IMG/VR virus record: IMGVR_UViG_3300032234_000392
Span: 99,264-163,263 of that record
DNA: 64,000 nucleotides
DNA from: a virus
Lineage: Duplodnaviria; Caudoviricetes
Direction: 5' to 3' (one strand)
A program made the position numbers and the translations under genes. Shown here piece after piece: positions 2,534-47,875 of this stretch. The notes beneath the pieces were generated by a model. The model searched no databases. It was not told the DNA's origin and was given only the letters and a program-made list of their open reading frames with translations. Numbering within the stretch: the stretch's first letter is position 1; each line of letters starts with the position of its first letter.

Positions 2534-3606
2534 GTGAGCAAGGCCTTTACAGTGTCTGCAACATACTTGACCTGTTGATCAGTTAGAGCCGGTCCTGAAG
2601 GCAAGTCGATGCCTCTAGACGAAACCAGTTCTGAGTTAGGCAATGATACATCATTGTTATAAAACGGATGATTGTTCATCAATGTGAAAATTGGTCTGGA
2701 TTCAATACCCTGTGTTTTTAACTGTTCTACCAGTTGAATATTATTATCAACCAACAGTTGGTAGCGCCAATACACACAGGTTTCGTTGGGTCTTTCTTTG
2801 AAAATACCCATACCTGCAAAATGCTGATCGTATAGTTTGGCCACTCTGCGACGACTGGCAATAAGTGTATCAATTTGTTCAAGTTGTGCCAATGCCACGG
2901 CTGCTGCTAAATTACTCATGCGATTGTTAAGTGCAAACACCACCCCACCAGCATTGTCAGGTGGCGGTGTTCTAAGATCAAAACAACGAGCAGCCAGCTG
3001 ATCGTCATTCACAGTGATAGCTCCGCCTTCGCCACTGCCAATAATTTTATTATGAAAACTATGGCAAGCAATAGTTCCCCATCCACCTACAGGTTTTCCT
3101 GCAACGGTCGCACCAAAACTTTCAGCAGCATCTTCAATAACTGGAATGTTTAGCGGATCAGTAATAGCCAGTAATGCAGGCATGTCGACTGCATAGCCAT
3201 ACAAATGCACAGCCATAACAGCTTTGGTTTTTGCAGTTATTTTTTTCTGTACATCGCACACATCCATGGTCAGACTGTTTGGTGCAGTATCACACCACAC
3301 TGGAATTGCCCCTACTGCTGATATTGCAAAGGTACTTGCACTCATAGTCAACGCCGGTACAATCACTTCGTCTCCCTTGCCCACACCTAATGCTTGTAAT
3401 GCTATGATCAGTGCATAGGTACCATTGACCACTGTAATGCCGTGTTTGGTTCCACAATAGGCAGCGATATCAGTTTCTAATTTGGACACAAACTCACCCT
3501 GCCACGATATCCAATTTGTATCAATACATTGATTGAGATATTTTCTTTCGTTGCCGTTGAGTAAAGGGGAATCTAATGGAATCATAATATACGCATATTT
3601 ATTCAC
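2530..3606 (-). CDS. DegT/DnrJ/EryC1/StrS PLP-dependent sugar aminotransferase
   Basis: NGTYAL, GDEVIVP, VHLYG, IEDAAESFG, SFHNKII-GEGG motifs. Confidence 0.92.
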   Translation of the reverse strand: MNKYAYIMIPLDSPLLNGNERKYLNQCIDTNWISWQGEFVSKLETDIAAYCGTKHGITVVNGTYALIIALQALGVGKGDEVIVPALTMSASTFAISAVGAIPVWCDTAPNSLTMDVCDVQKKITAKTKAVMAVHLYGYAVDMPALLAITDPLNIPVIEDAAESFGATVAGKPVGGWGTIACHSFHNKIIGSGEGGAITVNDDQLAARCFDLRTPPPDNAGGVVFALNNRMSNLAAAVALAQLEQIDTLIASRRRVAKLYDQHFAGMGIFKERPNETCVYWRYQLLVDNNIQLVEQLKTQGIESRPIFTLMNNHPFYNNDVSLPNSELVSSRGIDLPSGPALTDQQVKYVADTVKALLT

Positions 3607-9933: not shown

Positions 9934-11069
9934 GGTTGTAACACTACCCAACCACCGTTTTGATACCCTTTGAATTTGTTTGCACCGGAATCATAATACA
10001 TCATACCGTTTACTGGAAACCCGCCAACAGCGGTGTTGGCTGCAGATTCACTGGCATAGGTTGCAAATATAACCATTCCTGTGAATTCGGAAATTCCTTT
10101 TGAATCAATAGATAATCTTTCGACTAGAGCTCCAGAGGAATCTGCAGTACTTATTGCAAGTCTTCCTGGTACAATATTTGAACCAACACTGCCATCTACG
10201 CTAGATTCAATTCTTGAACTAGGCTGAATATCTGCGGTAGATTGTCCTGCAAATACCAAACTAAAAATTTTATCATCGGTATTTAAACTTGTAAGATTAT
10301 TGGCTGTTCCTCGACTTCTAGAGAAAACAGCTCCTGATGGCAATGAATCGTCGTGTGCTGTGATGATATTGAATATATTAGCATCATCTTCTAAAGACGA
10401 TTGTGTCACAATAGTGATGCCACCTTCTGCTAAGTCTTTGTTGACAAGAATATTACCGGTAATAACACTGGTGTTGTCAACATCTCCCCTAATTAAGCCG
10501 TCAACTCCGTCGACAAGCATCATGCTGTCATCACCCACAACAGACCCTTTTACATCTCCGGTATGATATCCAACAGTATTACCTGTGACATTTCCAACAA
10601 CATTACCCGTGACATTTCCTATAACTGGACCTGTATGAATACCTGCTGAATTACCGGTTAAATTTCCTGTTACATTGCCGACTAAGTTTCCGTTAAATGT
10701 TCCACTGATTGCATCAACCAACGGTTGGCTAGCTATTGTTGATCCGTCATCTGCAAATAACGACCCTTTGAATGCGTCTGCTCTAATTGTTCCTGCATAG
10801 TTAGATAAATTAACATTTGCAGTCATTACATTAGTAGCAGTATTATAGGAAAAAGTAATACCGTTATGTGATCCGTCTGTAAAAATCTCTGCTGCTGAAT
10901 CTTTAGCGTCACCGTCAGTATAGCCAGTAATCTGTATACCACCTAGAGTGGAACCATTTCCGACATATAATTTTTGTTCGTTGGTAACATACAATAACTC
11001 ACCCGAAGCGAGTGGTTGTGTCATGGCTAATCTTTCAGCATCGGTGCCTCTGCGAACTTGTAAGGGCAT
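9930..11069 (-). CDS. tail fibre / virion structural protein
   Basis: N-terminal LQVRRGT..GEL..LYVGNG domain, GNVTG repeats, C-terminal GMMYYDS..FKGY. Confidence 0.75.
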   Translation of the reverse strand: MPLQVRRGTDAERLAMTQPLASGELLYVTNEQKLYVGNGSTLGGIQITGYTDGDAKDSAAEIFTDGSHNGITFSYNTATNVMTANVNLSNYAGTIRADAFKGSLFADDGSTIASQPLVDAISGTFNGNLVGNVTGNLTGNSAGIHTGPVIGNVTGNVVGNVTGNTVGYHTGDVKGSVVGDDSMMLVDGVDGLIRGDVDNTSVITGNILVNKDLAEGGITIVTQSSLEDDANIFNIITAHDDSLPSGAVFSRSRGTANNLTSLNTDDKIFSLVFAGQSTADIQPSSRIESSVDGSVGSNIVPGRLAISTADSSGALVERLSIDSKGISEFTGMVIFATYASESAANTAVGGFPVNGMMYYDSGANKFKGYQNGGWVVLQP

Positions 11070-11133
11070 AGTTTAAACTCCTGGAATATTCCTATATCAT
11101 ATATTTATGTCACAAGTATCAGAACCTAGAGCC

Positions 11134-11163
11134 AAAAAAATAGGGCTCCGAAGAACCCTATTT
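11134..11163. terminator. intrinsic terminator hairpin
   Basis: aaaaaaatagggctccgaagaaccctattt; U-tract on the minus strand. Confidence 0.65.
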
Positions 11164-11178
11164 AAACTGCGTAGTTTA

Positions 11179-11784
11179 CTACATTATAGGACCGTTTCCG
11201 TTCCTAAAACCCACTACACCGCCTTCTGCTGTGATACGTTTTAACACATCTTCAAACAGAATAGGTGCAAAGTCTGGAGTCTGTTCTACACATACGCAAT
11301 GGTATCTAGGGTCAATTTCGTCGCTGTACAAAATTTCACCTGTTTTAGCATCAACTCCCCTAGGCTTACGAACGCGGTTAGCGTGTAAATGCCCGTGAAT
11401 GTTAACTCCAAAACGACCTAAACTATCTGCGTGAACAGGGATGTGACTTAGAATCATGCCGTTCATGACATGATAAGCTCGTAATTCACGGAAGTATTCA
11501 CGATACTCGTCATCACGGAAAATATCGTGATTGCCACGAATCAAGACCTTGTCACCATTAAGACGACTTAGAGTTTTTAAAGCCTTGCGGTTAATAACCA
11601 CATCACCTAAGTGGTAAACTTTGTCGTTTGGACGAACACGTTCGTTCCAAGCTGCGATCATAGCTTCGTCCATTTTCGTAGGATCGTCCCAAGGCCGCAA
11701 TTTTGTAACTCCGTCATTTCGAGTGAAGCGGCAGACGCCGGTGTGTCCGAAATGCGTGTCTGATACTAAAAATACACTAGGCAT
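11179..11784 (-). CDS. calcineurin-like metallophosphoesterase
   Basis: SDTHFGH, HLGD, GNHD, HGHLH; start moved to MPSVF (AGGAG upstream) because the longer ORF runs into a tRNA. Confidence 0.9.
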   Translation of the reverse strand: MPSVFLVSDTHFGHTGVCRFTRNDGVTKLRPWDDPTKMDEAMIAAWNERVRPNDKVYHLGDVVINRKALKTLSRLNGDKVLIRGNHDIFRDDEYREYFRELRAYHVMNGMILSHIPVHADSLGRFGVNIHGHLHANRVRKPRGVDAKTGEILYSDEIDPRYHCVCVEQTPDFAPILFEDVLKRITAEGGVVGFRNGNGPIM

Positions 11785-11811
11785 CTTGCCCTCCTTTCTT
11801 TGAAAAATGTT

Positions 11812-11886
11812 TGGCCCGGCTGCCAGGACTCGAACCTGGATCAATAGCTTAGAAGGCTACTGTACTATCCCTTGTACTACAGCCAG
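11812..11886 (-). tRNA. tRNA-Arg(UCU)
   Basis: cloverleaf, loop CTTCTAA, GGTTCGAG, encoded CCA. Confidence 0.93.
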
Positions 11887-11900
11887 TTAATTTTATTATA

Positions 11901-12479
11901 CTATAGAACGTATTCTACGTCAACCGCTAAGATAAATCTATAATCGTGACTTTGCACGATACCCGGACGATGCCATTGGTTGCTAGGATATATTACCCAG
12001 TTGCCGTCTGTGGGTCGAACAAAAAACTTACCATCTCCGTCAACACCGTTTGGTGCCATTTCTGTGCCACAGTAGTCTCGGTCTTTGACATCCTTAGGAA
12101 TGTGCAGATAAAATACTCCGCTCATCATTTTAGCATTAGGATTTTGTGGATGCCAGTGATTATGCCAAAGATTATCACGGTTTTCGGCACCCTCAAGATT
12201 GGTCATAAAACTCCATGCCATCATGTTTGATACTCTAACTTCACGACCTAGATACATAAACACACTCATAAGAAAACTCATACGGTACTTTAACCATACG
12301 GATTCAGTTCTTGCGAAAATATTTTCTTTAGTTTGAAACTTAGGAGAGTTGGTAAAATAATTACCTTCACTGACAATATTACGAATGATTCTGCAGGCTT
12401 CTTGATTGTCTTGTTCTGTAATTACTGAACTAAAATCAAACTTACGAAATACTGCATCTTGATCAATTACTGTTAACAT
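11901..12479 (-). CDS. putative 2OG-Fe(II) oxygenase
   Basis: WHNH, MSGVFYLHIP, IYPSNQWHRP. Confidence 0.55.
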   Translation of the reverse strand: MLTVIDQDAVFRKFDFSSVITEQDNQEACRIIRNIVSEGNYFTNSPKFQTKENIFARTESVWLKYRMSFLMSVFMYLGREVRVSNMMAWSFMTNLEGAENRDNLWHNHWHPQNPNAKMMSGVFYLHIPKDVKDRDYCGTEMAPNGVDGDGKFFVRPTDGNWVIYPSNQWHRPGIVQSHDYRFILAVDVEYVL

Positions 12480-12487
12480 TGTGTCCT

Positions 12488-12561
12488 TGGAGCGGGATAG
12501 GAGAATCGAACTCCTAACCGAAGATTGGAAATCTGCTGTTTTACCATTAAACTAATCCCGC
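12488..12561 (-). tRNA. tRNA-Gly(UCC)
   Basis: GCGGGAT acceptor, loop TTTCCAA, TCCA end. Confidence 0.92.
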
Positions 12562-12571
12562 ATAAAACTAT

Positions 12572-12754
12572 TTACTCATCCTCTTCTGGCGGTACAGCCA
12601 AAGGTGATGTTGAAGGCTTTTTCTTAGACCATTGACTGTAGCTGGCGCCTTCTGCTCGACCACTAACACCATATTCACATTGTGTGATCTTTCCACCGTT
12701 GGCTAAAAACTCTGCCACCGCAGCATCTACTTCAGCTTGATCATTTTTACTCAT
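12572..12754 (-). CDS. small hypothetical phage protein
   Basis: EFLANGGKITQC motif common in small phage proteins. Confidence 0.6.
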   Translation of the reverse strand: MSKNDQAEVDAAVAEFLANGGKITQCEYGVSGRAEGASYSQWSKKKPSTSPLAVPPEEDE

Positions 12755-12773
12755 GTTTACCTTTTGTTATAAT

Positions 12774-12847
12774 TGGTTGCGGGACCCGGAATCGAACCAG
12801 GAACTACAGCTTATGAGACTGTCGAGATACCGTTTCTCTATCCCGCG
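12774..12847 (-). tRNA. tRNA-Met(CAU), initiator-like acceptor stem
   Basis: CGCGGGA...TCCCGCAACCA (C1:A72 mismatch), loop CTCATAA. Confidence 0.88.
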
Positions 12848-12854
12848 ATTGTTC

Positions 12855-13430
12855 TTACAGTAAGCCTTCTGCTGTTAGTGTTGCTACAGTATCATCACCG
12901 AGCGGAATCTCAGTTTTGATATTCAACTCAAGGATTTCGTCGTTGAGTTTTTGTTTCTGCTTCTTGAGATTTAGGATCTCAGTTTTAGCTTGTGCAATCT
13001 GTTCTTTGCTTAAAATACCTGTGCTAACAGTATCACTATAACCGTAAAGACTGCGACGATTATTGTCACCTTTGTCGTTTTTCATCTTTTCCAACTTGCC
13101 TTTGATTACTTCTAGTGAAGTAATTTCTGTGCCTCCGGCCAACTGCTCTAACTGACCAATACGCTTGTCAATAAACGCCGCCTTGGCCAATGCTGTGTCA
13201 ATACCGCTGGCTGCATTAGCAGTGCCTACTAGGGCTCGGATATTGTATAGAGCCATAGTCAAGTTCTGCCTACGGCCATCATTTACAATCAGTTCATTGT
13301 TGGCCTTACTGAGTGTGTCCTCAACATTTTGAAACTCGTTAATCTCAACTGTGAGGTCAACTCGAATATTTTTTACTGTTTCGTTGATGCTGTTTTGTAC
13401 AGCATTTGCTTTACGAAGGGTAATGTTCAT
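12855..13430 (-). CDS. coiled-coil hypothetical protein
   Basis: 191-aa ORF overlapping the rpoZ stop (ATGA). Confidence 0.7.
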   Translation of the reverse strand: MNITLRKANAVQNSINETVKNIRVDLTVEINEFQNVEDTLSKANNELIVNDGRRQNLTMALYNIRALVGTANAASGIDTALAKAAFIDKRIGQLEQLAGGTEITSLEVIKGKLEKMKNDKGDNNRRSLYGYSDTVSTGILSKEQIAQAKTEILNLKKQKQKLNDEILELNIKTEIPLGDDTVATLTAEGLL

Positions 13431-13642
13431 TTACGTTTTCCTACTAGTGTTTTTAGATAATCTTCTTTAGTATAATGTCCGTCTTCTATTTCTTTTAATG
13501 CTGACACTACAGGGCCATGTCCAGGTTCTGCCTTTGTAGGAGAACCACGTCTAATTTCTCTAGCACGTTGACTAGCAACTAATACTAGATCAAATAATCC
13601 ACCTGCTGCGATTGCTGCTTTTTGCGATGTAATCCTGGCCAT
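13427..13642 (-). CDS. rpoZ: RNA polymerase omega subunit
   Basis: MARIT...FDLVLVASQRAREI...ALKEIEDG matches RpoZ. Confidence 0.88.
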   Translation of the reverse strand: MARITSQKAAIAAGGLFDLVLVASQRAREIRRGSPTKAEPGHGPVVSALKEIEDGHYTKEDYLKTLVGKRK

Positions 13643-13662
13643 GTCTAATCCTTTAAGTTATA

Positions 13663-13926
13663 AGTGACGGTTTGGTAAAAGGTCAAGCAATAGACCGGAC
13701 AATGAACAACGAAAGAATTATAGTCTTTCTTTGACAATGTGCAAATAACAATACACAGAGGTTCATATATTTCCGATTAACAAATGACATTCTATTAGGG
13801 ATCGGCTCACATAAACACGGTCCAATTTCAAGTTGGATTGTAAGTTTGGAGTAAGCATGAAGCTTAAACCTGTGTGTCTATCCTCGTCTACCTTTTACTT
13901 CACCGGTTCAGTATTGCTACCGAACA
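13663..13926 (-). ncRNA. candidate ~265-nt structured RNA upstream of rpoZ
   Basis: own consensus promoter; GCAA-tetraloop 5' hairpin; nested long-range helices GTAAAAGGT/ACCTTTTAC, ATAGAC/GTCTAT, ACACAG/CTGTGT. Confidence 0.6.
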
Positions 13927-13931
13927 AAACT

Positions 13932-13960
13932 ATTATAACACTATTTTGCGTCTGTGTCAA
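13932..13960 (-). promoter_or_regulatory. sigma70-type promoter
   Basis: TTGACA-N17-TATAAT. Confidence 0.85.
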
Positions 13961-13976
13961 GACTTTTTGGTATTAT

Positions 13977-14052
13977 TGGCTCCGATTCCTGGATTCGAAC
14001 CAGGCTTCACGGATTAACAGTCCGCCGCCTTCACCTAGATTGCTCAATCGGA
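13977..14052 (-). tRNA. tRNA-Asn(GUU)
   Basis: loop CTGTTAA, GCCA end. Confidence 0.92.
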
Positions 14053-14059
14053 ATTATTT

Positions 14060-14141
14060 TGGTGCCCCCGGGGTGAATCGAACACCCTTTTCTTTCGAGC
14101 CTGATTACAAATCAGGTGCAATCCCACTATGCGACAGGGGC
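14060..14141 (-). tRNA. tRNA-Thr(UGU) with enlarged variable region
   Basis: GCCCCTG acceptor, CCTGA-TTTGTAA-TCAGG, ACCA end. Confidence 0.85.
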
Positions 14142-14149
14142 ATACTTCT

Positions 14150-14347
14150 TTACTCTGCTACTGTTTCTTCTACTACCGCAGGAGCAACATAACCTAATCG
14201 TGTTAGACGACTGTTGATTTTAGCAATAAGTTTTTTCTTACTGGATTTTTCTCGAGCATCTAACAACTGTTTAATATTTAATGAAACTACCTTGATCTCC
14301 CCTGCCTTTGTGAAGCCAGGTTTCTTACGTTGTAAATTTTTTGCCAT
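14150..14347 (-). CDS. small basic hypothetical protein
   Basis: GAGGA RBS, 65 aa, lies between tRNAs. Confidence 0.65.
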   Translation of the reverse strand: MAKNLQRKKPGFTKAGEIKVVSLNIKQLLDAREKSSKKKLIAKINSRLTRLGYVAPAVVEETVAE

Positions 14348-14366
14348 ACTATCCTCTTATGTTATT

Positions 14367-14442
14367 TGGTGGAGGTTAGGAGATTCGAACTCCTCGCCTA
14401 TTGCTTGCAAAGCAATTGCTCTACCAAATGAGCTAAACCCCC
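14367..14442 (-). tRNA. tRNA-Ala(UGC)
   Basis: GGGGGTT acceptor with G3:U70, loop TTTGCAA. Confidence 0.94.
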
Positions 14443-14448
14443 AAATAC

Positions 14449-14622
14449 TTAACCTTTGTTGCTGTCTTTTTGTCGCGGTGCTCTTGACGGTACTGCCGCA
14501 GCTAATTCTGCTTGAATCATTGAGCGACGCCATGAGTCACGTTGATCTTTGTCTTTCCATAGTCCTAGTGCTAGACTGCGTTTTGCCTGTTTACTTAATT
14601 TAAATGTTGCATTTGCTTTCAT
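14449..14622 (-). CDS. 57-aa hypothetical protein (MKANATFKLSKQAKR...), not in the ORF track
   Basis: GAGGA RBS; ORF fills the gap between two tRNAs. Confidence 0.65.
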   Translation of the reverse strand: MKANATFKLSKQAKRSLALGLWKDKDQRDSWRRSMIQAELAAAVPSRAPRQKDSNKG

Positions 14623-14640
14623 AATTTCCTCTCAGTTAAA

Positions 14641-14733
14641 TGGCGGAGCATGTTGGATTCGAACCAACGGTCCAGGTTATCCCCAGACTCTTTCTTAGCA
14701 GGAAAGTGCCTTAAGCCTCTCGGCCAATGCTCC
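14641..14733 (-). tRNA. tRNA-Ser(GCU)
   Basis: GGAG acceptor, loop CTGCTAA, long variable arm, GCCA. Confidence 0.93.
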
Positions 14734-14898
14734 ATTAGTTGATAGTACTCGCCGTCTATGACAACGTGTCTATTTAGGAGTCCTGCGCTAACAGTTCCAA
14801 AGCATCTAACAACAGTTATATCAGACTTCGCACCATGCCAGTGGATGTCGTGTAGCGTATGCGTCCATACGCGATACCTGCCGAGTGCTATCAACTAA
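14734..14898 (-). ncRNA. candidate ~165-nt rod-like RNA between tRNA-Leu and tRNA-Ser
   Basis: 18-bp terminal inverted repeat with one mismatch, abutting both tRNAs; internal hairpins. Confidence 0.6.
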
Positions 14899-14981
14899 TG
14901 GTGCCCCAGGACGGACTCGAACCGTCACGCTTGCGCACTGGCTTCTAAGACCAGCGTGTCTACCAATTCCACCACCAGGGC
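14899..14981 (-). tRNA. tRNA-Leu(UAG)
   Basis: GGTAGACAC D-loop, loop CTTAGAA, variable arm. Confidence 0.94.
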
Positions 14982-15003
14982 ATATTTCTTTCTTACAAAG
15001 TAT

Positions 15004-15032
15004 ATTATATAGCCTTTCATCTACTATGTCAA
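15004..15032 (-). promoter_or_regulatory. sigma70-type promoter inside the tRNA array
   Basis: TTGACA-N17-TATAAT. Confidence 0.85.
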
Positions 15033-15041
15033 CACTTATTT

Positions 15042-15133
15042 TGGTACCAGCGGAGGGAATCGAACCCTCTCAAGAACGCTAATCTGGCGCTAAAAGTCTT
15101 ATAAGGACTCTCTGACTACCAAGTCTCACTGGC
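15042..15133 (-). tRNA. atypical tRNA with UAU anticodon (nominal Ile) and long variable arm
   Basis: loop CTTATAA, T-arm GAGGG-TTCGATT-CCCTC, ACCA; 4-nt D-loop, extended anticodon stem. Confidence 0.8.
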
Positions 15134-15139
15134 ATTGAT

Positions 15140-15214
15140 TGGCCGGTCCGGAGAGATTCGAACTCCCGACAGCTGGTTTCGAAGACCAGAACTCTTCCAC
15201 TGAGCTACGGACCG
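15140..15214 (-). tRNA. tRNA-Arg(UCG)
   Basis: loop CTTCGAA, GCCA end. Confidence 0.92.
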
Positions 15215-15215
15215 A

Positions 15216-15305
15216 TGGCGGAAGCGGTGAGATTCGAACTCACGGTGCCTTGCGACACGACAGTTTTCAAGACTGCTGCCTTAAACCAGACTCAGCCACA
15301 CTTCC
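15216..15305 (-). tRNA. tRNA-Ser(UGA)
   Basis: loop CTTGAAA, long variable arm, GCCA. Confidence 0.94.
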
Positions 15306-15312
15306 TTATTTT

Positions 15313-15395
15313 TGGTACCCCAGACGGGAGTCGAACCCGCAACTAGTCTGTCTCTTGAACAGATGCGTCTACCTAGTATTTTGCGCCACTGGGGC
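15313..15395 (-). tRNA. atypical Leu-like tRNA (anticodon CAA or AAG)
   Basis: GCCCCAG/CTGGGGT-ACCA, GGTAGACGC D-loop; anticodon arm TCTGT-TCAAGAG-ACAGA; no long variable arm. Confidence 0.7.
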
Positions 15396-15401
15396 ATAGC
15401 T

Positions 15402-15475
15402 TGGAGCGGGTAGCGAGAATCGAACTCGCGAATAAACCTTGGCAAGGTTTCAGGTTACCATTACATCATACCCGC
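15402..15475 (-). tRNA. tRNA-Gly(GCC)
   Basis: loop TTGCCAA, TCCA end. Confidence 0.93.
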
Positions 15476-15481
15476 ATTGTT

Positions 15482-15559
15482 TGGAGTGAAGGGTCGGATT
15501 CGAACCGACGGCTTTAGAGTTTTGCAGACTCTTGCATTGGGCCTCTCTGCCACCTTCAC
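15482..15559 (-). tRNA. tRNA-Cys(GCA)
   Basis: loop CTGCAAA, U73-CCA. Confidence 0.92.
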
Positions 15560-15561
15560 GT

Positions 15562-15635
15562 TGGCGAATCTCCAGGGAATCGAACCCCGATCTGCGGTTT
15601 TGGAGACCGATGTAATGCCATTATACCAGAGACTC
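15562..15635 (-). tRNA. tRNA-Trp(CCA)
   Basis: loop CTCCAAA, GCCA end. Confidence 0.92.
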
Positions 15636-15639
15636 ATAT

Positions 15640-15714
15640 TGGTACACCTAAGGAGAATCGAACTCCTCTTCCCGCCGTGAAAGGGCGGTGTCCTAACCGA
15701 TAGACGATAGGTGC
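15640..15714 (-). tRNA. tRNA-Glu(UUC)
   Basis: loop CTTTCAC, GGTTAGGAC D-arm. Confidence 0.94.
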
Positions 15715-15722
15715 ATAAAACT

Positions 15723-15799
15723 TGGCGGAGTAGACGGGACTCGAACCCGCGACCCTCGGCGTGACAGGCCGATATTCTAACCAACTGAACTACCACTCC
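15723..15799 (-). tRNA. tRNA-Asp(GUC)
   Basis: GGAG acceptor, loop CTGTCAC, GCCA. Confidence 0.95.
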
Positions 15800-15807
15800 A
15801 TACAACT

Positions 15808-15836
15808 ATTATAACAGCAAATGACGCTGCTGTCAA
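15808..15836 (-). promoter_or_regulatory. sigma70-type promoter inside the tRNA array
   Basis: TTGACA-N17-TATAAT. Confidence 0.85.
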
Positions 15837-15843
15837 CCTTTTT

Positions 15844-15928
15844 TGGTGCGACTGGCCAGAATCGAACTGGCATGGATTGCTCCGCAAGATTTTAAGTCTT
15901 GTGTGTCTACCGATTTCACCACAGTCGC
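15844..15928 (-). tRNA. tRNA-Leu(UAA)
   Basis: loop CTTAAAA, variable arm, ACCA. Confidence 0.94.
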
Positions 15929-15934
15929 AAATTC

Positions 15935-16019
15935 TGGTGGAGATGATAAGAATCGAACTTATTCACCCGAAGGAACAGATTTACAGTCTGCCGCCACTCT
16001 CCAACTTAGCCGCATCTCC
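15935..16019 (-). tRNA. tRNA-Tyr(GUA)
   Basis: loop CTGTAAA, variable arm, ACCA. Confidence 0.93.
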
Positions 16020-16020
16020 G

Positions 16021-16178
16021 AATCACACTCTTAAGAATGTGTGTATCAAAGCATACTCAAACGAATACGCTTTGGTACGCTGTAATTTTTCACACTACAA
16101 AAAGTGCTTCATCCTACAGGCCGCCCGTTCGTCCATGTTTAGAGTGCAGACTGGGACCTCGTTTCCCTTACACACTTT
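16021..16178 (-). ncRNA. candidate structured RNA immediately 5' of tRNA-Tyr
   Basis: GTGTGTA/TACACAC closing helix, GGGA-AACGAGG-TCCC, CTGTAG/TTACAG, ~16-bp GTACCAAAGCGTATTC hairpin. Confidence 0.5.
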
Positions 16179-16181
16179 GTA

Positions 16182-16346
16182 CTAATTTACGCTAAAGGTT
16201 GGTGATTTTAACACCGCCTTCTGATATATCTTAGCACGATCAAACTTATCTTGAATAAGTTTTTGAAGTTGCTCTTTGGTAAGAACATTTTCATAAGCCT
16301 GCTCAACGACACGTTCATTTAATTTTTCGTAATCTATCTGTTTCAT
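16182..16346 (-). CDS. 54-aa hypothetical protein (MKQIDYEKLNERVVE...), first gene after the attenuator
   Basis: AAAGGA RBS; not in the ORF track. Confidence 0.65.
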   Translation of the reverse strand: MKQIDYEKLNERVVEQAYENVLTKEQLQKLIQDKFDRAKIYQKAVLKSPTFSVN

Positions 16347-16358
16347 TTTGTCCTTTAT

Positions 16359-16393
16359 AAAACAAAAAACCCCAGGTTTTAATCCTAGGGTCC
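16359..16393 (-). terminator. intrinsic terminator (attenuator 3:4 hairpin)
   Basis: GGACCCTAGG-ATTAAAA-CCTGGGG-TTTTTTGTTTT. Confidence 0.85.
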
Positions 16394-16446
16394 TTGAAGT
16401 TTATGTTTAGTTATTTGTTAACTGTACACGATCTCCTTGGACCCTA
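16386..16446 (-). promoter_or_regulatory. putative antiterminator helix
   Basis: TAGGGTCC-AA-GGAG (16433-16446) pairs with CTTC-AA-GGACCCTA (16386-16399), sequestering the terminator 5' arm. Confidence 0.7.
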
Positions 16447-16561
16447 CACGTAGTAAACGATCATTTGTCACACTTGATTCAATCGCATACCAGCAAGAAG
16501 GCATCACGCCGCCTAGCTTGGCTATGGATATTGAATCTTGTGTATGATATGTCGTTTGCAT
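16418..16561 (-). CDS. 47-aa putative attenuator leader peptide MQTTYHTQDSISIAKLGGVMPSCWYAIESSVTNDRLLRVGSKEIVYS
   Basis: AGGA RBS just downstream of a consensus promoter; stop codon lies inside the antiterminator. Confidence 0.7.
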   Translation of the reverse strand: MQTTYHTQDSISIAKLGGVMPSCWYAIESSVTNDRLLRVGSKEIVYS

Positions 16562-16581
16562 CTGTTTCCTAAGTAAGTACA

Positions 16582-16610
16582 ATTATATAGTCTTTTTATT
16601 TAGCTGTCAA
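16582..16610 (-). promoter_or_regulatory. sigma70-type promoter of the leader/tRNA unit
   Basis: TTGACA-N17-TATAAT. Confidence 0.87.
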
Positions 16611-16647
16611 TAGATATATGGTATGATAATGTGGCATTTTTACAACA

Positions 16648-16917
16648 TTATTCCATTTCTACTATGCCAGTCTCTCCAGCGATAAGCAAGTGTTTGCCAA
16701 TTTCAAAAAGTCCAACTCCACCCGGTAGGTCAAGAGCACAAGCATGGATCTGAGTAAGTCCGTCGCTGTCTATACTAGCAGCCACAAACTCTGTAATCTC
16801 TCCGCTCTGGACCATCATACGCATAGAGTCGATGACATCTAGTAAATCTTGTTTGCGTTTAGCTTCAGCTGCTTCTTTACCGCCAAGAACTACTATATTT
16901 GAATCTGTTTTCATCAT
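16648..16917 (-). CDS. hypothetical protein
   Basis: 89-aa ORF directly after the clpP-like gene. Confidence 0.65.
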   Translation of the reverse strand: MMKTDSNIVVLGGKEAAEAKRKQDLLDVIDSMRMMVQSGEITEFVAASIDSDGLTQIHACALDLPGGVGLFEIGKHLLIAGETGIVEME

Positions 16918-16922
16918 TGTCT

Positions 16923-17486
16923 TTATTTTAAAATGTAATCTGCTGCACCATGCTCGACCATTTCCTGTGCTGTCATGTAAACATCAGTTGGCGGCAGTAG
17001 CCTTTTCTTAACATAAGTTGGCGGTTGTTTGGTAGCGGCTGCTAAAACATCAACCATCTTACTATTAAGCAATTCTGTTTCTTTCATTTCAGCTTTGAGA
17101 TCGTGATACTTACCGTCTGTGCCTGAACTGAACTGATGACACATACAGCTGGTATTATGGGCAACATATCGTTCACCACGAGTACCTGCTGCCACGATCA
17201 AAAATGCTGCACTCATCACAGTACCTATACCAATGGTACGAATTTTATGCACACTAGAATTCATGATATCTATTAAGGCAAATGCCTGATATAAATCGCC
17301 GCCTGTAGAATTCACGTATAGCGTTAGTATTTTATCCTGATTAGGATTAAGATCTTCGTAGGCAATCCATTTAATACATTTTTCTACGTTTTCTTCTTCG
17401 ATTTCTCCCGAGAGGAAAAATACTGAATTTTCCAGCAATGCAATATCAATACGTTCTTCTGCATTAAATTCGGTAATATTTTTCAC
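16923..17486 (-). CDS. clpP: ATP-dependent Clp protease proteolytic subunit-like protein
   Basis: LYVNSTGG, GTVMSAA (catalytic Ser), MCHQ, DVYMTAQE..GAAD. Confidence 0.85.
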   Translation of the reverse strand: MKNITEFNAEERIDIALLENSVFFLSGEIEEENVEKCIKWIAYEDLNPNQDKILTLYVNSTGGDLYQAFALIDIMNSSVHKIRTIGIGTVMSAAFLIVAAGTRGERYVAHNTSCMCHQFSSGTDGKYHDLKAEMKETELLNSKMVDVLAAATKQPPTYVKKRLLPPTDVYMTAQEMVEHGAADYILK

Positions 17487-17545
17487 TTGGGCTCCGTTGA
17501 ATTACACTTACTTATCTCTTTGTTAATTATAGCATCAGTTTATAT

Positions 17546-17923
17546 TTAAGCCAACATAATTACGCCAATAATTGCAATATAGGTAAGATAGTGCAGACCC
17601 TGATCTGCGCCAAACCATACCCAAAACATACGATCTGCTGTGGTCAGCCCGCGATTTAACTGTTGTTTTAGCCAATCGACATGATAGTGTACAACTCCAT
17701 CAATTAGACCCAAAACTACTGCGGCAAAGTGTGCGAACGGACCCCACGGTAGTACTATTACCAATACCACAAATGTACCCAAGGCATGAATCAGGGCATG
17801 TTCGAGACCTCCGCGAGCTCCATAAGTTCCTTTTTGTGCTACCATATGAGGATACTGTAATAGGAAATCACAGACAAAATGTTTGACGCCAAACAGGGCT
17901 AATAGTAAGATTACTGTGGTCAT
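17546..17923 (-). CDS. DUF3307-like membrane protein
   Basis: KHFVCDFLLQ, HYHVDWLK, GADQGLH. Confidence 0.75.
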   Translation of the reverse strand: MTTVILLLALFGVKHFVCDFLLQYPHMVAQKGTYGARGGLEHALIHALGTFVVLVIVLPWGPFAHFAAVVLGLIDGVVHYHVDWLKQQLNRGLTTADRMFWVWFGADQGLHYLTYIAIIGVIMLA

Positions 17924-18099
17924 TCTGGTAAAGATCTAAATCTCAGCAAAAAGCTCTCTTCATAACAGCTGAATTCTCGACATTCCTTGCAATTATCTTG
18001 CTCATAATGAATCCATATTTTTCCGTCAAGTTCTACTCTATGAACTACGTGAAATATATTGCCTTCATTACTTACCCACCTTGATCCTTCTTTGACCAT
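17920..18099 (-). CDS. 59-aa hypothetical protein (MVKEGSRW...)
   Basis: GGAG RBS; fills gap, ATGA overlap with next gene. Confidence 0.55.
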   Translation of the reverse strand: MVKEGSRWVSNEGNIFHVVHRVELDGKIWIHYEQDNCKECREFSCYEESFLLRFRSLPE

Positions 18100-18108
18100 A
18101 CGCTCTCC

Positions 18109-18510
18109 TTACTTGAAATTTTCTAATGCATCAGTGTCTACATTCTCTACCATATGTAGCATAAATCGATAGCCGTCCCAGGCTTTCTTTACAGCATCAC
18201 TATCACTATTTACTGTTGGGAACATATCTACCCAAACTGAATTCTCAGGTTGCTTGTGTCTGTGCATACCTTGTCTGCGTGGCTGCAGAATACGATTTGA
18301 ATTCCAAAGAGCCAAAGCCACACGTCGACATTCTTCTTCGTCTAGCATATAAAGGTAATCATCTCGATACAAATAGCTATCAACTACTTGTACTAATTGA
18401 TCTTCTTCGTGAATGTTTGTGGCTGCAATAACAAAGGCCACATCATCAAGAGCAACTTCTCCCTTGACAATATCACGAATACAACGACCAAGACTGAATC
18501 CAATTTTCAT
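18109..18510 (-). CDS. hypothetical phage protein
   Basis: MKIGFSLGRCIRDIV N-terminus; in gene string. Confidence 0.7.
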   Translation of the reverse strand: MKIGFSLGRCIRDIVKGEVALDDVAFVIAATNIHEEDQLVQVVDSYLYRDDYLYMLDEEECRRVALALWNSNRILQPRRQGMHRHKQPENSVWVDMFPTVNSDSDAVKKAWDGYRFMLHMVENVDTDALENFK

Positions 18511-18894
18511 TCTTTGACTCCAAAATGTTCTAACAAATCTCTGCCAGTACGATCAGCATACTCATCCATAAATTCAGCAGATTCCTTAATTAATAACTGG
18601 GCGAATAAATCTAATCCTTCTTGATCAGGATTAAAGTCTATGCCCGCCTGCTGTTTGAGTTCTTGAAGCCGACGAGTCATTTAGGCTCCGTAGTATGTCT
18701 GTGCTTGTTCAGCAGCTCGTTCTCGTAGTTGTTGATCCACTCGTTGAACAGCTTCTTTACGTTCTTGATCAGTAAGTTCATAGCATTTAGGGTTCCCTTT
18801 AGGATCACGCATTAGCGGATAATCTCGTTGTTTCTTTTGAAAAAGTTTGGAAATCATGTGAATGTCTTTCAGTTGATGATATACTATTATAACA

Positions 18895-20403
18895 TCATTT
18901 CCATTTTAAAGCAAACATTATTTTGTCCGCTTCTTCAATAAAATAAAAAGCTGAAACACTGTCATAGTTGTAGTCGACATCGGAGGTATCTACTAATTCT
19001 GCCCAAACGAAACTTTGACAGTGTGCTCGAGCCCATTTTTTCATACGCCACATAGGCTCAACAGGGTCGGAAAGAAGTACCCGATGACATTGATCTAATA
19101 CGTGTTGTGGCGGCGTTAAATCGTAATTGTTAACGTGCATTATGACCATTTCATGGCAAACATAGTAGCATCTTGTTCATTTTGAAAATACCAAACTCGA
19201 TTGCTGCCACGTACAATGTCTCTGAACTTGCCTGCACAATGCTCCATACACCAACATAGTTTATCTTCGTAGTTGTCATGCAACACTAAAGGGACACCGT
19301 GCCATCCTTCCAAAATAGTCATTAATCGTTCGTGTTGTATTAATCCAACATCTTCAGAAATCATGTCTAGTCGAACTGTCATTTGCCGTGCCTCAACAAC
19401 CATTCGGTTAGTGCCGGTCCTGTGAGTTTAGCTCGTATCTCATATTTGTATCCATAACTTATATGATCTGCCATCCTATACCAAGAGGGAGTTTCACAGG
19501 CATGTGTCATAACCCATTGTCCTGTATCACTCTTTTCCCATTCGTGTAATGGTTGGGCAGCATAGAGATCTGGATCTTCCACATCACCCATGGTAAAACT
19601 ATGAACAACTATTTCTTTCATGTGTAATATATTTTAGTGCAAATACTGTTGCTTCGACATCGCTGCTGATATAAACTGTATGCATGGGGTCTCCCGAATT
19701 AAATCGAAATGCATGATCTGCTGTAGGACAATTTGTATTCATCCACCCTATAAAATCATGATCATCGGCAGGATAGACCCAGCAGTACCAACCGCGAGGC
19801 ATAGGATCCGTATTGGTAATTAAAAATGATGAATAATTTGGAATCGTTGCGCCATCTTCAAATCGCCAGTAGTGTACCGATGTTGTTGATCTCATAGCCA
19901 TTTTAGTGTAAACGTCACAGCATCGCCCTGATCTTCAAAAATAAAATGTCTGCCGTTTCTATGAAATTTTCCTTGACAATTATCTGTTAACCAGTAGGTA
20001 ATATCAACAGCATGTTTGTTATCTTGCAACTTTGATAGATCTATGCGGTGCCAACCGCAAGATTTGACTAACACATCAGTAAGGATTTCAAAGTCTATGG
20101 CACTATGCATCTGTGTGCCTAATTCTTCTAGTATTTGATCTTGCATATTCATTTTAATACATTGCCTTTAGCACCGCCCCAACGTAGCATAAACATTGTG
20201 GCATCATAGTCATCTGAAAATTGAAAATAAAGAGCATGTGTGCTTTCACAGCGCCAAATGCCTTTACAGGTTGTTTCACACCATGATTTCATTTCGGGCA
20301 GTGTAGTATAACCTATCTGGTCAAAGTTTACACGATAGGGAAATATAGCCCTTGCTCGAGTGGCTAATAGTTCACCTAGTGTGGCAATCTTAGTTTTTGA
20401 CAT
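18895..20403 (-). repeat. tandem array of ~6 small related ORFs (18895-19149, 19140-19403, 19379-19621, 19599-19901, 19892-20152, 20149-20403)
   Basis: shared W-x3-4-C...F-x-F-x3-DA-x2-F-x-L-(K/R)-W pattern in five; 19379 is more divergent. Confidence 0.7.
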
Positions 20404-47251: not shown

Positions 47252-47403
47252 AAAATCTCCTTGTGTGTGTTTGAAAACTTCTCTCAGCGTTTTCACTGAG
47301 TATGTGTATATTATATATCCTAAAGAAACCTATTGTCAAGCAATTTTAATAGGTTTTTTCTATTGTATTTTTTAATATCGAATATTAAAAAAATCTATAT
47401 GAT

Positions 47404-47426
47404 AAAAAAGCGGCCGAAGCCGCTTT
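47404..47426 (-). terminator. terminator after tmRNA
   Basis: AAAGCGGC-TTCG-GCCGC-TTTTTT. Confidence 0.8.
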
Positions 47427-47800
47427 GGTTGTTTGGATGACAAGGTAAGTCCTACCTCGCGAGTGCAGTTTCTTAGGCTGCTACTGCTACTCCACCTTTT
47501 ACAGTATTACCTGTGAAAGAGAAAGTACCAATCTCGAATGTATCTGCGTTTGCATTTACGAGTTTTGCTTGATTAACGGTCATCGCCTACCGTGTTGCCT
47601 CTTTCGCTATCTCGCCATGTCGAAACTGATTCATCCCCATCAAAAAGACTTTTAACAATCCAAAACAGATAATTTAGTGCTACTGCTATGCCCCAAAGAT
47701 AAACCCATTGCCAATTATCAAACATAAAATCCTTTTGGTGGAGATGCCGGGCTCTGCCCCCGGGTCCACAACGCCTTTACTACGAAGGAATTACAACAAT
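47427..47800 (-). ncRNA. ssrA: circularly permuted (two-piece) tmRNA; tag (A)ANADTFEIGTFSFTGNTVKGGVAVAA
   Basis: acceptor piece ending CATCTCCACCA at 47736 precedes coding piece starting GGGGATG at 47638 (G3:U70); TTCGAC; resume context TAAAT-GCA; tag 47473-47553 ends in AA. Confidence 0.88.
47573..47725 (-). CDS. putative 50-aa single-TM peptide starting in the tmRNA intervening segment
   Basis: AAAGGA RBS; MFDNWQWVYLWGIAVALNYLFWIVKSLF... Confidence 0.4.
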   Translation of the reverse strand: MFDNWQWVYLWGIAVALNYLFWIVKSLFDGDESVSTWRDSERGNTVGDDR

Positions 47801-47803
47801 TCT

Positions 47804-47875
47804 TTAAAAGAGGACTAAAAAGAATACCGCTACTACTATCACGATCCCAATTGCGAAATTGTAATCTGGTTCCAT
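47804..47875 (-). CDS. putative 23-aa membrane micropeptide MEPDYNFAIGIVIVVAVFFLVLF
   Basis: AGGGG RBS, hydrophobic run, directly after the cold-shock gene. Confidence 0.4.
   Translation of the reverse strand: MEPDYNFAIGIVIVVAVFFLVLF

Follow-up and report, generated by a model that had tools for sequence, protein, structure and literature searches.

The 64,000-nt stretch of phage DNA analyzed here (hereafter the window) carries on its minus strand, ahead of a tRNA array, what is likely to be a ribosome-mediated leader-peptide transcription attenuator, which would serve as a gauge of all aminoacyl-tRNAs and would gate a gene for a 54-amino-acid protein, a non-coding spacer and the array itself. 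An attenuator had been proposed at this place in a preliminary description made from the letters of the window, and this interpretation gained support from related phages: 77 distinct relatives preserve the anatomy of the element, and its helices covary. In this 77-member family, both the architecture of the module and the diversity of its leader are far beyond chance. Judging from sequence, the phage, an uncultured giant from a lake, and no fewer than 76 distinct relatives probably transcribe their tRNAs more when the leader is read slowly.

The element opens with a predicted sigma-70 promoter (16582-16610, minus strand, like all features described below) in which TTGACA (16610-16605) and TATAAT (16587-16582) are separated by a 17-nt spacer. 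All 12 of its 12 positions match, and it is one of four such perfect promoters in 8 kb. The predicted 5' UTR of the leader mRNA measures just ~13 nt and includes an AGGA Shine-Dalgarno sequence (16567-16570) placed 5 nt 5' of the leader ATG. The leader ORF (16418-16561) comprises 47 codons from the ATG at 16561 and ends with TAA at 16420-16418. The promoter, the AGGA motif and a strong intrinsic terminator had all been claimed in the preliminary description, and all three were found on the minus strand; the 47-codon ORF, said there to be missing from the list of open reading frames, is present, and the list contains solely a 54-aa version of it extended to a TTG. The leader encodes 19 of the 20 amino acids and no Phe, as had been correctly observed, and samples 25 of 32 codon classes. 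Its single codon that is invariant throughout the family besides the start, the TGG of Trp24, lies at 16490-16492.

Two competing folds can be drawn for the end of the leader. The antiterminator 5' arm (TAGGGTCC, AA, GGAG; 16433-16446) lies within leader codons 39-43 and faces a 3' arm (CTTC, AA, GGACCCTA; 16386-16399) situated beyond the stop codon. TAGGGTCC (16446-16439) is the exact reverse complement of GGACCCTA (16393-16386), and GGAG (16436-16433) pairs with CTTC (16399-16396) with one G-U pair among them, which bears out the complementarity previously noticed between the 3' end of the ORF and the 5' arm of the terminator. The whole antiterminator hairpin (16386-16446) is interrupted and has 21 pairs, with an energy of -27.3 kcal/mol (RNAfold) and with the stop codon inside its apical stem; the same hairpin is present when the whole leader is folded to minimum energy (-65.8 kcal/mol; z = -4.8 relative to shuffled sequences). 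The intrinsic terminator (16359-16391) consists of an 8-bp core stem (16391-16384 paired with 16376-16369), a 7-nt loop and a T6-G-T4 tail, the T-run spanning 16369-16359; a terminator scan lengthens the stem to 12 pairs, and the folded energy is -14.0 kcal/mol. Since 6 nt (16391-16386) serve both as the end of the antiterminator 3' arm and as the terminator 5' arm, the two folds are mutually exclusive, so that folding agrees with the earlier claim of an exclusive antiterminator enclosing the stop codon. No second copy of the element was detected in the phage's own 163-kb record, where a covariance model of the family matches a single place.

The gene for the 54-aa protein (16182-16346) follows immediately, its Shine-Dalgarno sequence beginning 3 nt past the T-run. 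The protein is predicted to form a two-helix hairpin (mean pLDDT 76), a generic fold; it has no family match in Pfam or PHROGs, and the ESM Atlas returned no usable match. The gene is promoterless and lies past the terminator, and it would be expressible only from read-through transcripts. A non-coding spacer of ~160 nt (16020-16181), for which Rfam gave no match, separates it from tRNA-Tyr, the first gene of an array (11812-16019) that comprises 18 tRNA genes for 14 amino acids. No terminator-like site was found in the window between the attenuator and the array. A tRNA array lies downstream of the module in all 27 relatives' loci scanned for it, and in the two relatives whose arrays were read from end to end, every one of the 20 amino acids has a tRNA. 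The preliminary description had cautioned that promoters inside the array, at 15808 and 15004, might drive distal tRNAs. Both are real (15808-15836 and 15004-15032, each with 12/12 matches), and a third perfect one lies at 13932-13960. These three predicted promoters can drive most of the array of the window independently of the attenuator; among the relatives, a promoter with at least 11/12 matches is absent from the 3 kb downstream in 13 of 28 loci.

Relatives were collected by means of the 54-aa protein, which yielded 40 viral and 80 metagenome loci, and the family was defined as the 77 distinct regions upstream of the conserved 54-aa gene, which together contribute 66 distinct leader peptides. 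A promoter, an ORF of 34-51 codons, the hairpin and the terminator are found in all 77 regions. The promoters have 10-12 of 12 matches and a 17-nt spacer and occupy an equivalent position in every case. In ten relatives the mRNA is predicted to be leaderless, the ATG standing 6-10 nt past the -10 box, at the predicted transcription start. A comparable leader ORF was obtained in just 9.3% of shuffled sequences as against 77/77 real ones, and the other two frames of the leader region are never open, with 3.9 stops on average. The placement of the ORF end is constrained as well: the ORF always passes the antiterminator 5' arm, by 2-52 nt (median 17), whatever frame the arm is in, and its stop always lies at least 22 nt upstream of the 3' arm, inside the hairpin, and 48-57 nt from the T-run.

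Conservation at the nucleotide level is confined to the hairpin and terminator parts, and a covariance model built from the 77 sequences realigns all of them. A distant blastn search of GenBank phages yielded tRNA-Tyr matches alone and no close relative; Rfam 15, searched over 11000-17500 with E up to 1, returned the tRNAs and chance matches and no other family; and neither the leader peptide nor the 89-aa protein encoded upstream matched anything in Pfam or PHROGs. RNA sequencing runs contain small shares of the stretch in the form of contigs of relatives. These metatranscriptome contigs fall on the tRNAs, the spacer and part of the terminator region; they are uninformative as to transcript ends, strand or level, and the absence of cover elsewhere, the leader ORF included, carries no evidential weight.

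The preliminary description had called for alternative folding and for a search for compensatory changes in related leaders, and both exercises gave positive results. In the family terminator, 99.8% of alignment cells are paired, compensatory changes occur in 5 of 8 pairs and none of 500 shuffles matched the observed value. In the basal helix of the antiterminator, an A-U pair is replaced by G-C in 17 sequences and a C-G pair by U-A in 9, and the covariation exceeds that of all 500 shuffles and of all slid controls. Per-sequence folds were used for this helix in place of MAFFT or covariance-model alignments, as these misregister a subfamily with one inserted base pair in the helix and their 'unpaired' cells therefore understate the pairing. 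The apical stems are made of many unrelated sequences, each of which is self-complementary. Hairpin energies across the family run from -17.5 to -37.7 kcal/mol, the median being -27.8, and the segment shared with the terminator has a median length of 7 nt. When the full leaders were folded without constraint, the antiterminator was present in the minimum-energy fold of 65 of the 77 sequences and the terminator in that of 11. Competition between the folds was judged on such unconstrained folds only, and a comparison of constrained energies was dropped because forbidding pairing of the 3' arm removed unrelated pairs too. The antiterminator 5' arm is decoded in differing frames among relatives, as Gly-Ser or as Arg-Val-Arg, which indicates that the constraint on the arm acts on the RNA and not on the peptide. 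The consensus fold of the family contains no conserved helix upstream of the antiterminator, whether of the pause or 1:2 type, although small hairpins after the Trp codon do fold in individual sequences.

The leader peptide itself is weakly constrained. Its pN/pS is 0.81 as compared to 0.34 for the adjacent 54-aa gene, with similar pS; its C-terminal quarter is read in differing frames among relatives, and both its length and its sequence change fast while the neighboring gene stays near constant. Besides the start, the TGG codon is the sole one conserved in all 66 distinct peptides, at residue 19-26. An Asp follows 6-11 residues after the Trp in most leaders, and in the commonest subfamily a Pro is found 12 residues after it; the Pro is missing from the window leader and from several families, and the distance from Trp to stop varies between 12 and 27 residues. 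The fixed position of the Trp and the nearby Asn-Asp(-Arg) motif are conserved beyond the needs of a pure sampling role. This pattern of constraint suggests that translation of the leader matters and that the peptide sequence mostly does not.

What is maintained is the composition. All 20 amino acids are present in 57 of the 66 distinct peptides, whereas this is expected for 2-4% of windows of phage proteins, for 6% of open shuffles of the same nucleotides and for at most 19% under uniform composition. When the peptides are clustered at 60% identity, 8 of the 12 clusters consist mostly of peptides with all 20, and the portion of the leader 5' of the antiterminator arm already holds all 20 in 50 of 59 cases, for example within merely 31 and 34 codons. 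Runs of one codon are not seen, and rare residues are present in about one copy each: Cys occurs in 63 of the 66 leaders at a mean of 1.0 copy, yet in 11 alignment columns, and His, Tyr, Lys and internal Met behave in the same way, with about one copy and a shifting position. Permutation of the alignment columns produced 10.4 +/- 2.7 peptides with all 20 amino acids as compared to the 57 observed. These data show selection on the leader family for the presence of every amino acid, the rare ones about once each. Codon diversity among the relatives, another point that the preliminary description had wished to see examined, is also conserved, with an average of 29.0 of 32 codon classes (NNY/NNR) per leader, where phage genes reach 21.7 and synonymously resampled leaders 26.6; sampling of codon classes beyond what the amino-acid content brings is moderate (median P = 0.06, with P < 0.05 in 42% of the leaders). 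The codon classes of a leader show no one-to-one match with the tRNA set of the relative concerned.

Taken by itself, the leader of the window stands closer to chance. Over the whole ORF, P is 0.11 for its 19 amino acids, 0.22 for its 31 distinct codons and 0.11 for its 25 codon classes, values that uphold the earlier caveat that a short ORF may be diverse by chance; in the part before the hairpin arm they are 0.034 for 19 amino acids and 0.054 for 24 codon classes. The idea that the leader senses many tRNAs is therefore not demonstrable from the window alone and draws its strong support from the family counts. The preliminary description had also singled out leader codons corresponding to the downstream tRNAs; there is no enrichment for codons of the phage's 18 tRNAs (P = 0.39 with Watson-Crick pairing, 0.28 with wobble). 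The codon adaptation of the window leader to the usage of the phage is low (P = 0.017), partly because codons constrained by the structure are rare. A reading in terms of rare host codons was rejected, as ATA, AGA, CTA, TCA, AGT and ACA are ordinary in this phage. The window copy, with no Phe codon and with internal promoters downstream, is probably a weak, slightly degraded member of the family.

These features suggest a mechanism in which the promoter would be strong and of constitutive type, and read-through of the terminator would be the controlled step. A first ribosome that keeps up with the polymerase would unwind or cover the 5' arm; with this arm unavailable, the 3' arm would pair with the downstream arm of the terminator and transcription would stop after ~200 nt. 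If the ribosome were absent, or slow anywhere in the first 31-43 codons, the antiterminator hairpin would form first, no terminator could arise and the polymerase would enter the 54-aa gene and the tRNAs. This direction of the switch, with absent or slow translation leading to read-through, is deduced from the geometry of the folds and agrees with the whiB7 uORF switch discussed below. A shortage of charged tRNA of any kind, or a general slow-down of translation, would then increase transcription of the tRNA array; that any such shortage should do so follows from the presence, upstream of the arm, of every one of the 20 amino acids and of the majority of codon classes. The shortage could arise if host tRNAs decay or are cleaved in the infected cell, or through a mismatch with the codon usage of the phage, and the net effect would be feedback driven by demand. 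As extra tRNA would not relieve amino-acid starvation, the selective advantage has to assume that tRNA is lost. We tentatively put forward, as possible rather than probable, the further proposal of a universal aminoacyl-tRNA gauge in which depletion of any single tRNA, through anticodon nucleases of the host, tRNA decay brought on by infection or a mismatch in codon usage, would call up the phage's complete tRNA set together with the 54-aa protein and the adjacent non-coding RNA. Such a gauge would act as an inducible counter-measure to tRNA loss and would have no known forerunner among attenuators in regulating tRNA genes.

The fold geometry demands merely a ribosome arriving in time, and the element might report ribosome availability, initiation capacity or global elongation only, the presence of all 20 amino acids having no sensing role. 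The leaderless variants point to initiation as a control point, and the leader of the window has kept the switch without a Phe codon. We nevertheless regard this explanation as unlikely, because it does not account for complete peptides in 57 of 66 cases where 2-6% are expected, nor for rare residues kept at about one copy while their position moves. It is distinctly improbable that the ORF is an independent small gene, producing a functional 47-aa protein from its own promoter and terminator, with leaky read-through and with a hairpin that acts as an mRNA stabilizer or an RNase III site. Conservation of the ORF, of the Trp and of the Asp-Arg motif would agree with such a gene, and RNase III can take long interrupted hairpins as substrates, but a pN/pS of ~0.8, a C-terminal quarter in varying frames, the rapid turnover of length and sequence beside a near-constant neighbor and the lack of a protein-family match for the peptide all argue against it. 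Moreover, a stabilizing hairpin has no reason to use up the 5' arm of the terminator in 77 of 77 cases, and the conserved, promoterless 54-aa gene depends on passage of this same terminator.

The invariance of the Trp at residue 19-26 in 66/66 peptides, the Asp 6-11 residues further on in most of them and the Pro 12 residues past it in the commonest subfamily could alternatively belong to an arrest peptide, in which Trp and a downstream Asp-Arg-x-Pro stall the ribosome through the exit tunnel, perhaps in response to a small molecule as in TnaC, so that read-through is set by this stall and not by tRNA supply. We consider this very improbable: the spacing of Trp, Asp and Pro varies, and the Trp-stop distance is too variable for the fixed spacing of TnaC- or SecM-type peptides; the window leader and several families do without the Pro; and the all-20 property receives no explanation. 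Lastly, the main output might be a trans-acting product, either the ~200-nt terminated leader RNA or its peptide, with control of the tRNAs being secondary. The strong promoter and the stable, structured terminated RNA (z = -4.8) are in line with this, and attenuator-derived sRNAs have precedent in the rnTrpL RNA and peTrpL peptide of Sinorhizobium, which are described as acting in trans (PMC6614838, PMC7298713). With nucleotide conservation limited to the hairpin and terminator and with the composition again unexplained, such an output as the main function is the reading that we would least expect, and attenuation would remain compatible with it.

The attenuator that we favor can be set beside several known systems. 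Classical leader-peptide attenuators (trpL, hisL, pheL) belong to amino-acid operons and have 14-32 codons with runs of the regulatory codon; multivalent leaders such as those of thrL and ilvGMEDA sense two or three amino acids. They control biosynthetic enzymes, and their 1:2 pause or anti-antiterminator hairpin ensures that absence of translation leads to termination. The phage element shares with them a promoter-proximal short ORF, an intrinsic terminator, an exclusive antiterminator and, as predicted, selection of the fold by ribosome position. It differs in having no codon runs, about one copy per rare residue and no 1:2 hairpin in the consensus fold; it is predicted to read through when translation is absent, and its regulated product would be tRNA genes. 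T-box riboswitches also sense tRNA status by way of an antiterminator and a terminator that compete, but each recognizes a single specific uncharged tRNA by direct binding, contains no ORF and controls genes for synthetases, biosynthesis or transporters; the T-box covariance model has no match here (Rfam 15, E up to 1).

In the whiB7/wblC attenuator of Actinobacteria, stalling on a uORF leads to read-through (Poulton et al., bioRxiv 10.1101/2023.06.02.543512). Of the 20 amino acids, 19 are encoded in the M. smegmatis whiB7 uORF, and a shortage of many of these triggers a response, one Trp codon being sufficient for Trp sensing. Without the start codon, basal expression and read-through are higher; the content of the uORF differs by species, with an enrichment in Ala, and that of M. 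tuberculosis lacks several amino acids (bioRxiv 10.1101/2023.06.02.543512). The phage leaders likewise present a long uORF followed by competing antiterminator and terminator folds, and by analogy their composition and geometry would fit a response to stalling. However, whiB7 is bacterial and controls a transcription-factor gene, whereas the phage element heads tRNA genes and has no sequence relation to it; completeness itself appears to be selected in the phage leaders, some of which are leaderless. The vmlR leader of B. subtilis is reported to be an antibiotic-responsive ribosome-mediated attenuator of a resistance gene (PMC9226507). Attenuators of this type resemble the phage element in reporting general translation stress through a uORF and terminator/antiterminator folds, and differ in that drugs stall ribosomes at particular uORF positions and resistance factors are regulated. 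Our literature search brought up no description of an attenuator ahead of phage tRNA genes, nor of leaders containing all amino acids. We know of no antibiotic-responsive attenuator with selection for complete amino-acid content.

Phage tRNA arrays have been connected with codon-usage adaptation as well as with escape from host defenses that cleave tRNA, and to our knowledge their regulation is essentially unknown. The proposed mechanism, if true, would adjust the supply of tRNA to decoding demand by simple feedback, and would extend leader-peptide attenuation from one or a few amino acids and biosynthetic enzymes to all amino acids and tRNA genes. It may also be of use where a compact sensor of translation capacity, taken from nature, is wanted. 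The design makes a sharp prediction, namely that omission of Phe would induce the leaders of relatives and not the Phe-less leader of the window. Among sequencing runs, parts of the stretch occur in lake or freshwater metagenomes only.

The module lies on the minus strand, where a perfect (12/12) sigma-70 promoter (TTGACA 16610-16605, 17-nt spacer, TATAAT 16587-16582) is followed by an AGGA ribosome-binding site (16570-16567), a 47-codon leader ORF running from an ATG at 16561 to a TAA at 16420-16418, and an intrinsic terminator (core stem 16391-16384 with 16376-16369, tail T6-G-T4, -14.0 kcal/mol). Every detail of this arrangement in the preliminary description, made from the sequence alone, proved correct. 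Just after the terminator comes the gene of a 54-aa protein (16182-16346, ATG at 16346), with its own Shine-Dalgarno sequence and no promoter of its own, then a roughly 160-nt non-coding spacer (16020-16181) and, beginning with tRNA-Tyr, an array of 18 tRNA genes for 14 amino acids (16019-11812). There is no terminator-like site between the putative attenuator and this array. Leader codons 39-43 contain TAGGGTCC-AA-GGAG, the 5' arm of the antiterminator, whose partner, CTTC-AA-GGACCCTA, is located 3' of the leader stop codon. The complementarity of the 3' end of the ORF to the terminator 5' arm, enclosing the stop codon, had also been noticed and was borne out by RNAfold: the pairing grows to an interrupted hairpin of 21 pairs (-27.3 kcal/mol) whose apical stem contains the stop codon. 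This hairpin also appears when the entire leader is folded to minimum energy (-65.8 kcal/mol, z = -4.8). Since six nucleotides (16391-16386) belong both to the 3' arm of the hairpin and to the 5' arm of the terminator, the two structures are mutually exclusive.

Family retrieval anchored on the 54-aa protein yielded 40 viral-contig and 80 metagenome loci, giving 77 distinct upstream regions. All 77 carry the promoter (10-12/12 with a 17-nt spacer), an ATG ORF of 34-51 codons, a T-run 48-57 nt past the leader stop codon and a long hairpin (median -27.8 kcal/mol) whose 3' arm shares a median of 7 nt with the terminator 5' arm. Such an ORF occurs in only 9.3% of dinucleotide shuffles, and the remaining two frames across the leader contain a mean of 3.9 stops and are open in none. 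A covariance model of hairpin plus terminator, built on the 77 sequences, realigns all of them at 45-114 bits and matches one place only in the phage's own 163-kb record. The tRNA array begins 190-470 nt past the 54-aa gene in 27/27 loci scanned, most often with tRNA-Tyr, and the two relatives' arrays that were fully read hold 27 and 34 tRNAs, with all 20 amino acids covered.

Covariation indicates that the antiterminator and terminator folds are both under selection. In the terminator, 99.8% of cells are paired and compensatory changes occur at five of eight pairs, values reached by none of 500 shuffles. In the basal antiterminator helix, as chosen by the family consensus fold, the first general pair is A-U (40), G-C (17) or G-U (9) and another is C-G (60) versus U-A (9); double changes and covariation score exceed those of all 500 shuffles and all slid controls. 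The alignment counts understate this pairing because an extra inserted pair in one subfamily (GGGTTCC with GGAACCC) falls out of register; that subfamily is fully paired in per-sequence folds. The apical stems comprise many unrelated sequences that are still self-complementary. As the preliminary description had anticipated, folding returned two exclusive structures: when complete leaders were folded without constraints, the antiterminator had the lowest energy in 65 of the 77 and the terminator in 11. Across the family neither structure is ruled out, consistent with a switch whose outcome is set while the RNA is being transcribed. The family consensus fold showed no conserved pause hairpin.

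Sequence comparison further indicates that the leader ORF is selected for translation and not for its peptide sequence. Its pN/pS is 0.81 versus 0.34 in the adjacent 54-aa gene at the same pS, and its third codon positions are not more variable than the first. The GGGTCC arm reads Gly-Ser in some relatives and lies inside Arg-Val-Arg in close relatives of those; by an automated count, all three frames are used at the predicted start of the outer helix. The ORF invariably extends beyond the 5' arm, by 2-52 nt with a median of 17, and its end is never closer than 22 nt to the 3' arm. In ten relatives the mRNA is leaderless, its ATG lying 6-10 nt beyond the -10 box; that an ATG is conserved at this site would be difficult to account for if it were not used. 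This distance is 6-7 nt in loci L066, L081, L092, L112 and L151 and 9-10 nt in L069, L071, L076, L077 and L154; their ATG is at or a few nucleotides from the predicted transcription start, without a Shine-Dalgarno sequence, and they have shorter ORFs, of 34-47 codons. In the remaining relatives, a 5' UTR of 30-60 nt contains a small hairpin.

Comparison with chance expectations argues for selection that keeps every amino acid represented in the leaders upstream of the arm. All 20 amino acids occur in 57 of 66 distinct leader peptides (19 in four, 18 in four, 17 in one), against expectations of 2-4% from same-length windows of this phage's proteins, 6% from open shuffles of the leaders' own nucleotides and at most 19% even under uniform amino-acid composition. 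Eight of 12 single-linkage clusters at 60% identity are mostly complete, for which we estimate from the cluster figures a binomial probability of about 1e-7 at p=0.06. In 50 of the 59 distinct stretches upstream of the arm (31-43 codons) no amino acid is missing, and the very diverged leaderless members L112 and L066 achieve this in 31 and 34 codons. Cys occurs in 63/66 leaders, averaging exactly 1.0 copy and spread over 11 alignment columns, and His, Tyr, Lys, Phe and internal Met are similarly kept but moving; permutation of residues within columns gave 10.4 +/- 2.7 complete peptides (maximum 23, 2000 trials) versus the 57 observed. Codons are sampled broadly as well, with 29.0 of the 32 NNY/NNR classes per leader (up to 32) versus 21.7 in phage-gene windows; synonymous resampling of the leader peptides gives 26.6 (median P=0.06, 42% of leaders <0.05). 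ATA, AGR, CGY, TCR, TCY, TGY, CAY and others are found in 86-100% of leaders versus 33-57% of background windows, and no one-to-one mapping emerged between a leader's sampled classes and that relative's tRNA set. The codon diversity pointed out in the preliminary description stands for the family; the window's own leader is a weak member of it. Its codons supply 19 amino acids, Phe being absent, and fall into 25 classes, with P about 0.1 over the whole ORF, and P=0.034 (amino acids) and P=0.054 (classes) before the arm. To the extent that the incomplete record reveals it, the window's array of 18 tRNAs for 14 amino acids likewise has no tRNA-Phe.

Ribosome-mediated attenuation is a textbook mechanism. 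Here, a ribosome keeping pace with the polymerase would melt or cover the 5' arm; the 3' arm, at least 22 nt past the stop, would remain outside the ribosome footprint and pair with the downstream arm, and transcription would end at the T-run. If no ribosome came, or if it lagged at any point within the first 31-43 codons, the hairpin would form before the terminator, and the polymerase would continue through the 54-aa gene and the spacer into the tRNA genes. With at least one codon per amino acid in the sensing stretch, scarcity of any one charged tRNA, or translation stress in general, would increase transcription of the tRNAs, candidate triggers being host tRNases, tRNA decay or codon mismatch. 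A close functional analogue, with the same read-through logic, is the mycobacterial whiB7 uORF attenuator, for which both read-through upon start-codon loss and sensing through a single Trp codon were shown experimentally (bioRxiv 10.1101/2023.06.02.543512). Full-text literature searches found no attenuator ahead of phage tRNA genes, nor any leader under selection to contain every amino acid. The family-level evidence supports the earlier interpretation of an attenuator sensing many tRNAs, and we regard one that senses all amino acids as reasonably probable.

Sampling of all amino acids does not account for every feature of the leader. A Trp (residue 19-26; 16490-16492, minus strand, in the window) is invariant at one alignment column in 66/66 distinct leader peptides, unlike other single-copy residues, which shift position, and Asn-Asp(-Arg) follows 6-11 residues past it in most families. 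This conservation exceeds what sampling alone requires. The variable spacing of these residues disfavours an arrest motif like that of TnaC, but the nascent chain may still play some role.

Four perfect 12/12 TTGACA-N17-TATAAT promoters occur on the minus strand within 8 kb (11000-19000), at 16610, 15836, 15032 and 13960. Their placement, all in the tRNA region, suggests strong transcription of this region by host sigma-70 holoenzyme. The caveat that internal promoters might serve distal tRNAs independently was well placed, as those predicted at 15836, 15032 and 13960 can feed most of the window's array. No promoter of 11/12 or better was found within 3 kb downstream in 13 of 28 relatives' loci. 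In some relatives the corresponding spacer contains a consensus promoter, at locus positions of about 3376-3387. The window's spacer has no Rfam match; metatranscriptome contigs of relatives map on it at notable depth, although, being contigs, they give neither RNA ends nor levels.

The 54-aa protein, with no match in Pfam, PHROGs or the Atlas, is much better conserved than the leader (23 invariant residues across 15 diverse copies; pN/pS 0.34) and is predicted to form a hairpin of two helices (pLDDT 76). Since read-through always yields this protein first, it may function together with the tRNAs. A ClpP-family protease (E=5e-33; 16923-17486, minus strand) is encoded directly upstream of the module and an RpoZ-like protein (Pfam RNA_pol_Rpb6, E=3e-9; 13427-13642, minus strand) inside the tRNA region.

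The window is the final 64 kb of a 163-kb IMG/VR record with an estimated completeness of 46%, so the genome is likely about 350 kb. No close relative of the window was found among GenBank phages, and near-identical words are restricted to lake or freshwater metagenomes. The tRNA-Ile(UAU) at 15042-15134 (minus strand) spans 92 nt and has a long variable arm, and the arrays of many relatives contain the same 92-nt tRNA-Ile(UAU); the best Rfam model for the window's gene is tRNA-Sec, at 31.9 bits, below that model's cut-off. ARAGORN called a permuted (two-piece type) tmRNA at 47382-47828 (minus strand) and others in many relatives, often 1-3 kb upstream of the module or within the tRNA array (L047 902-1318, L067 1565-1981, L074 49-447, L056 630-1061, L076 2232-2658 and L161 5049-5454).
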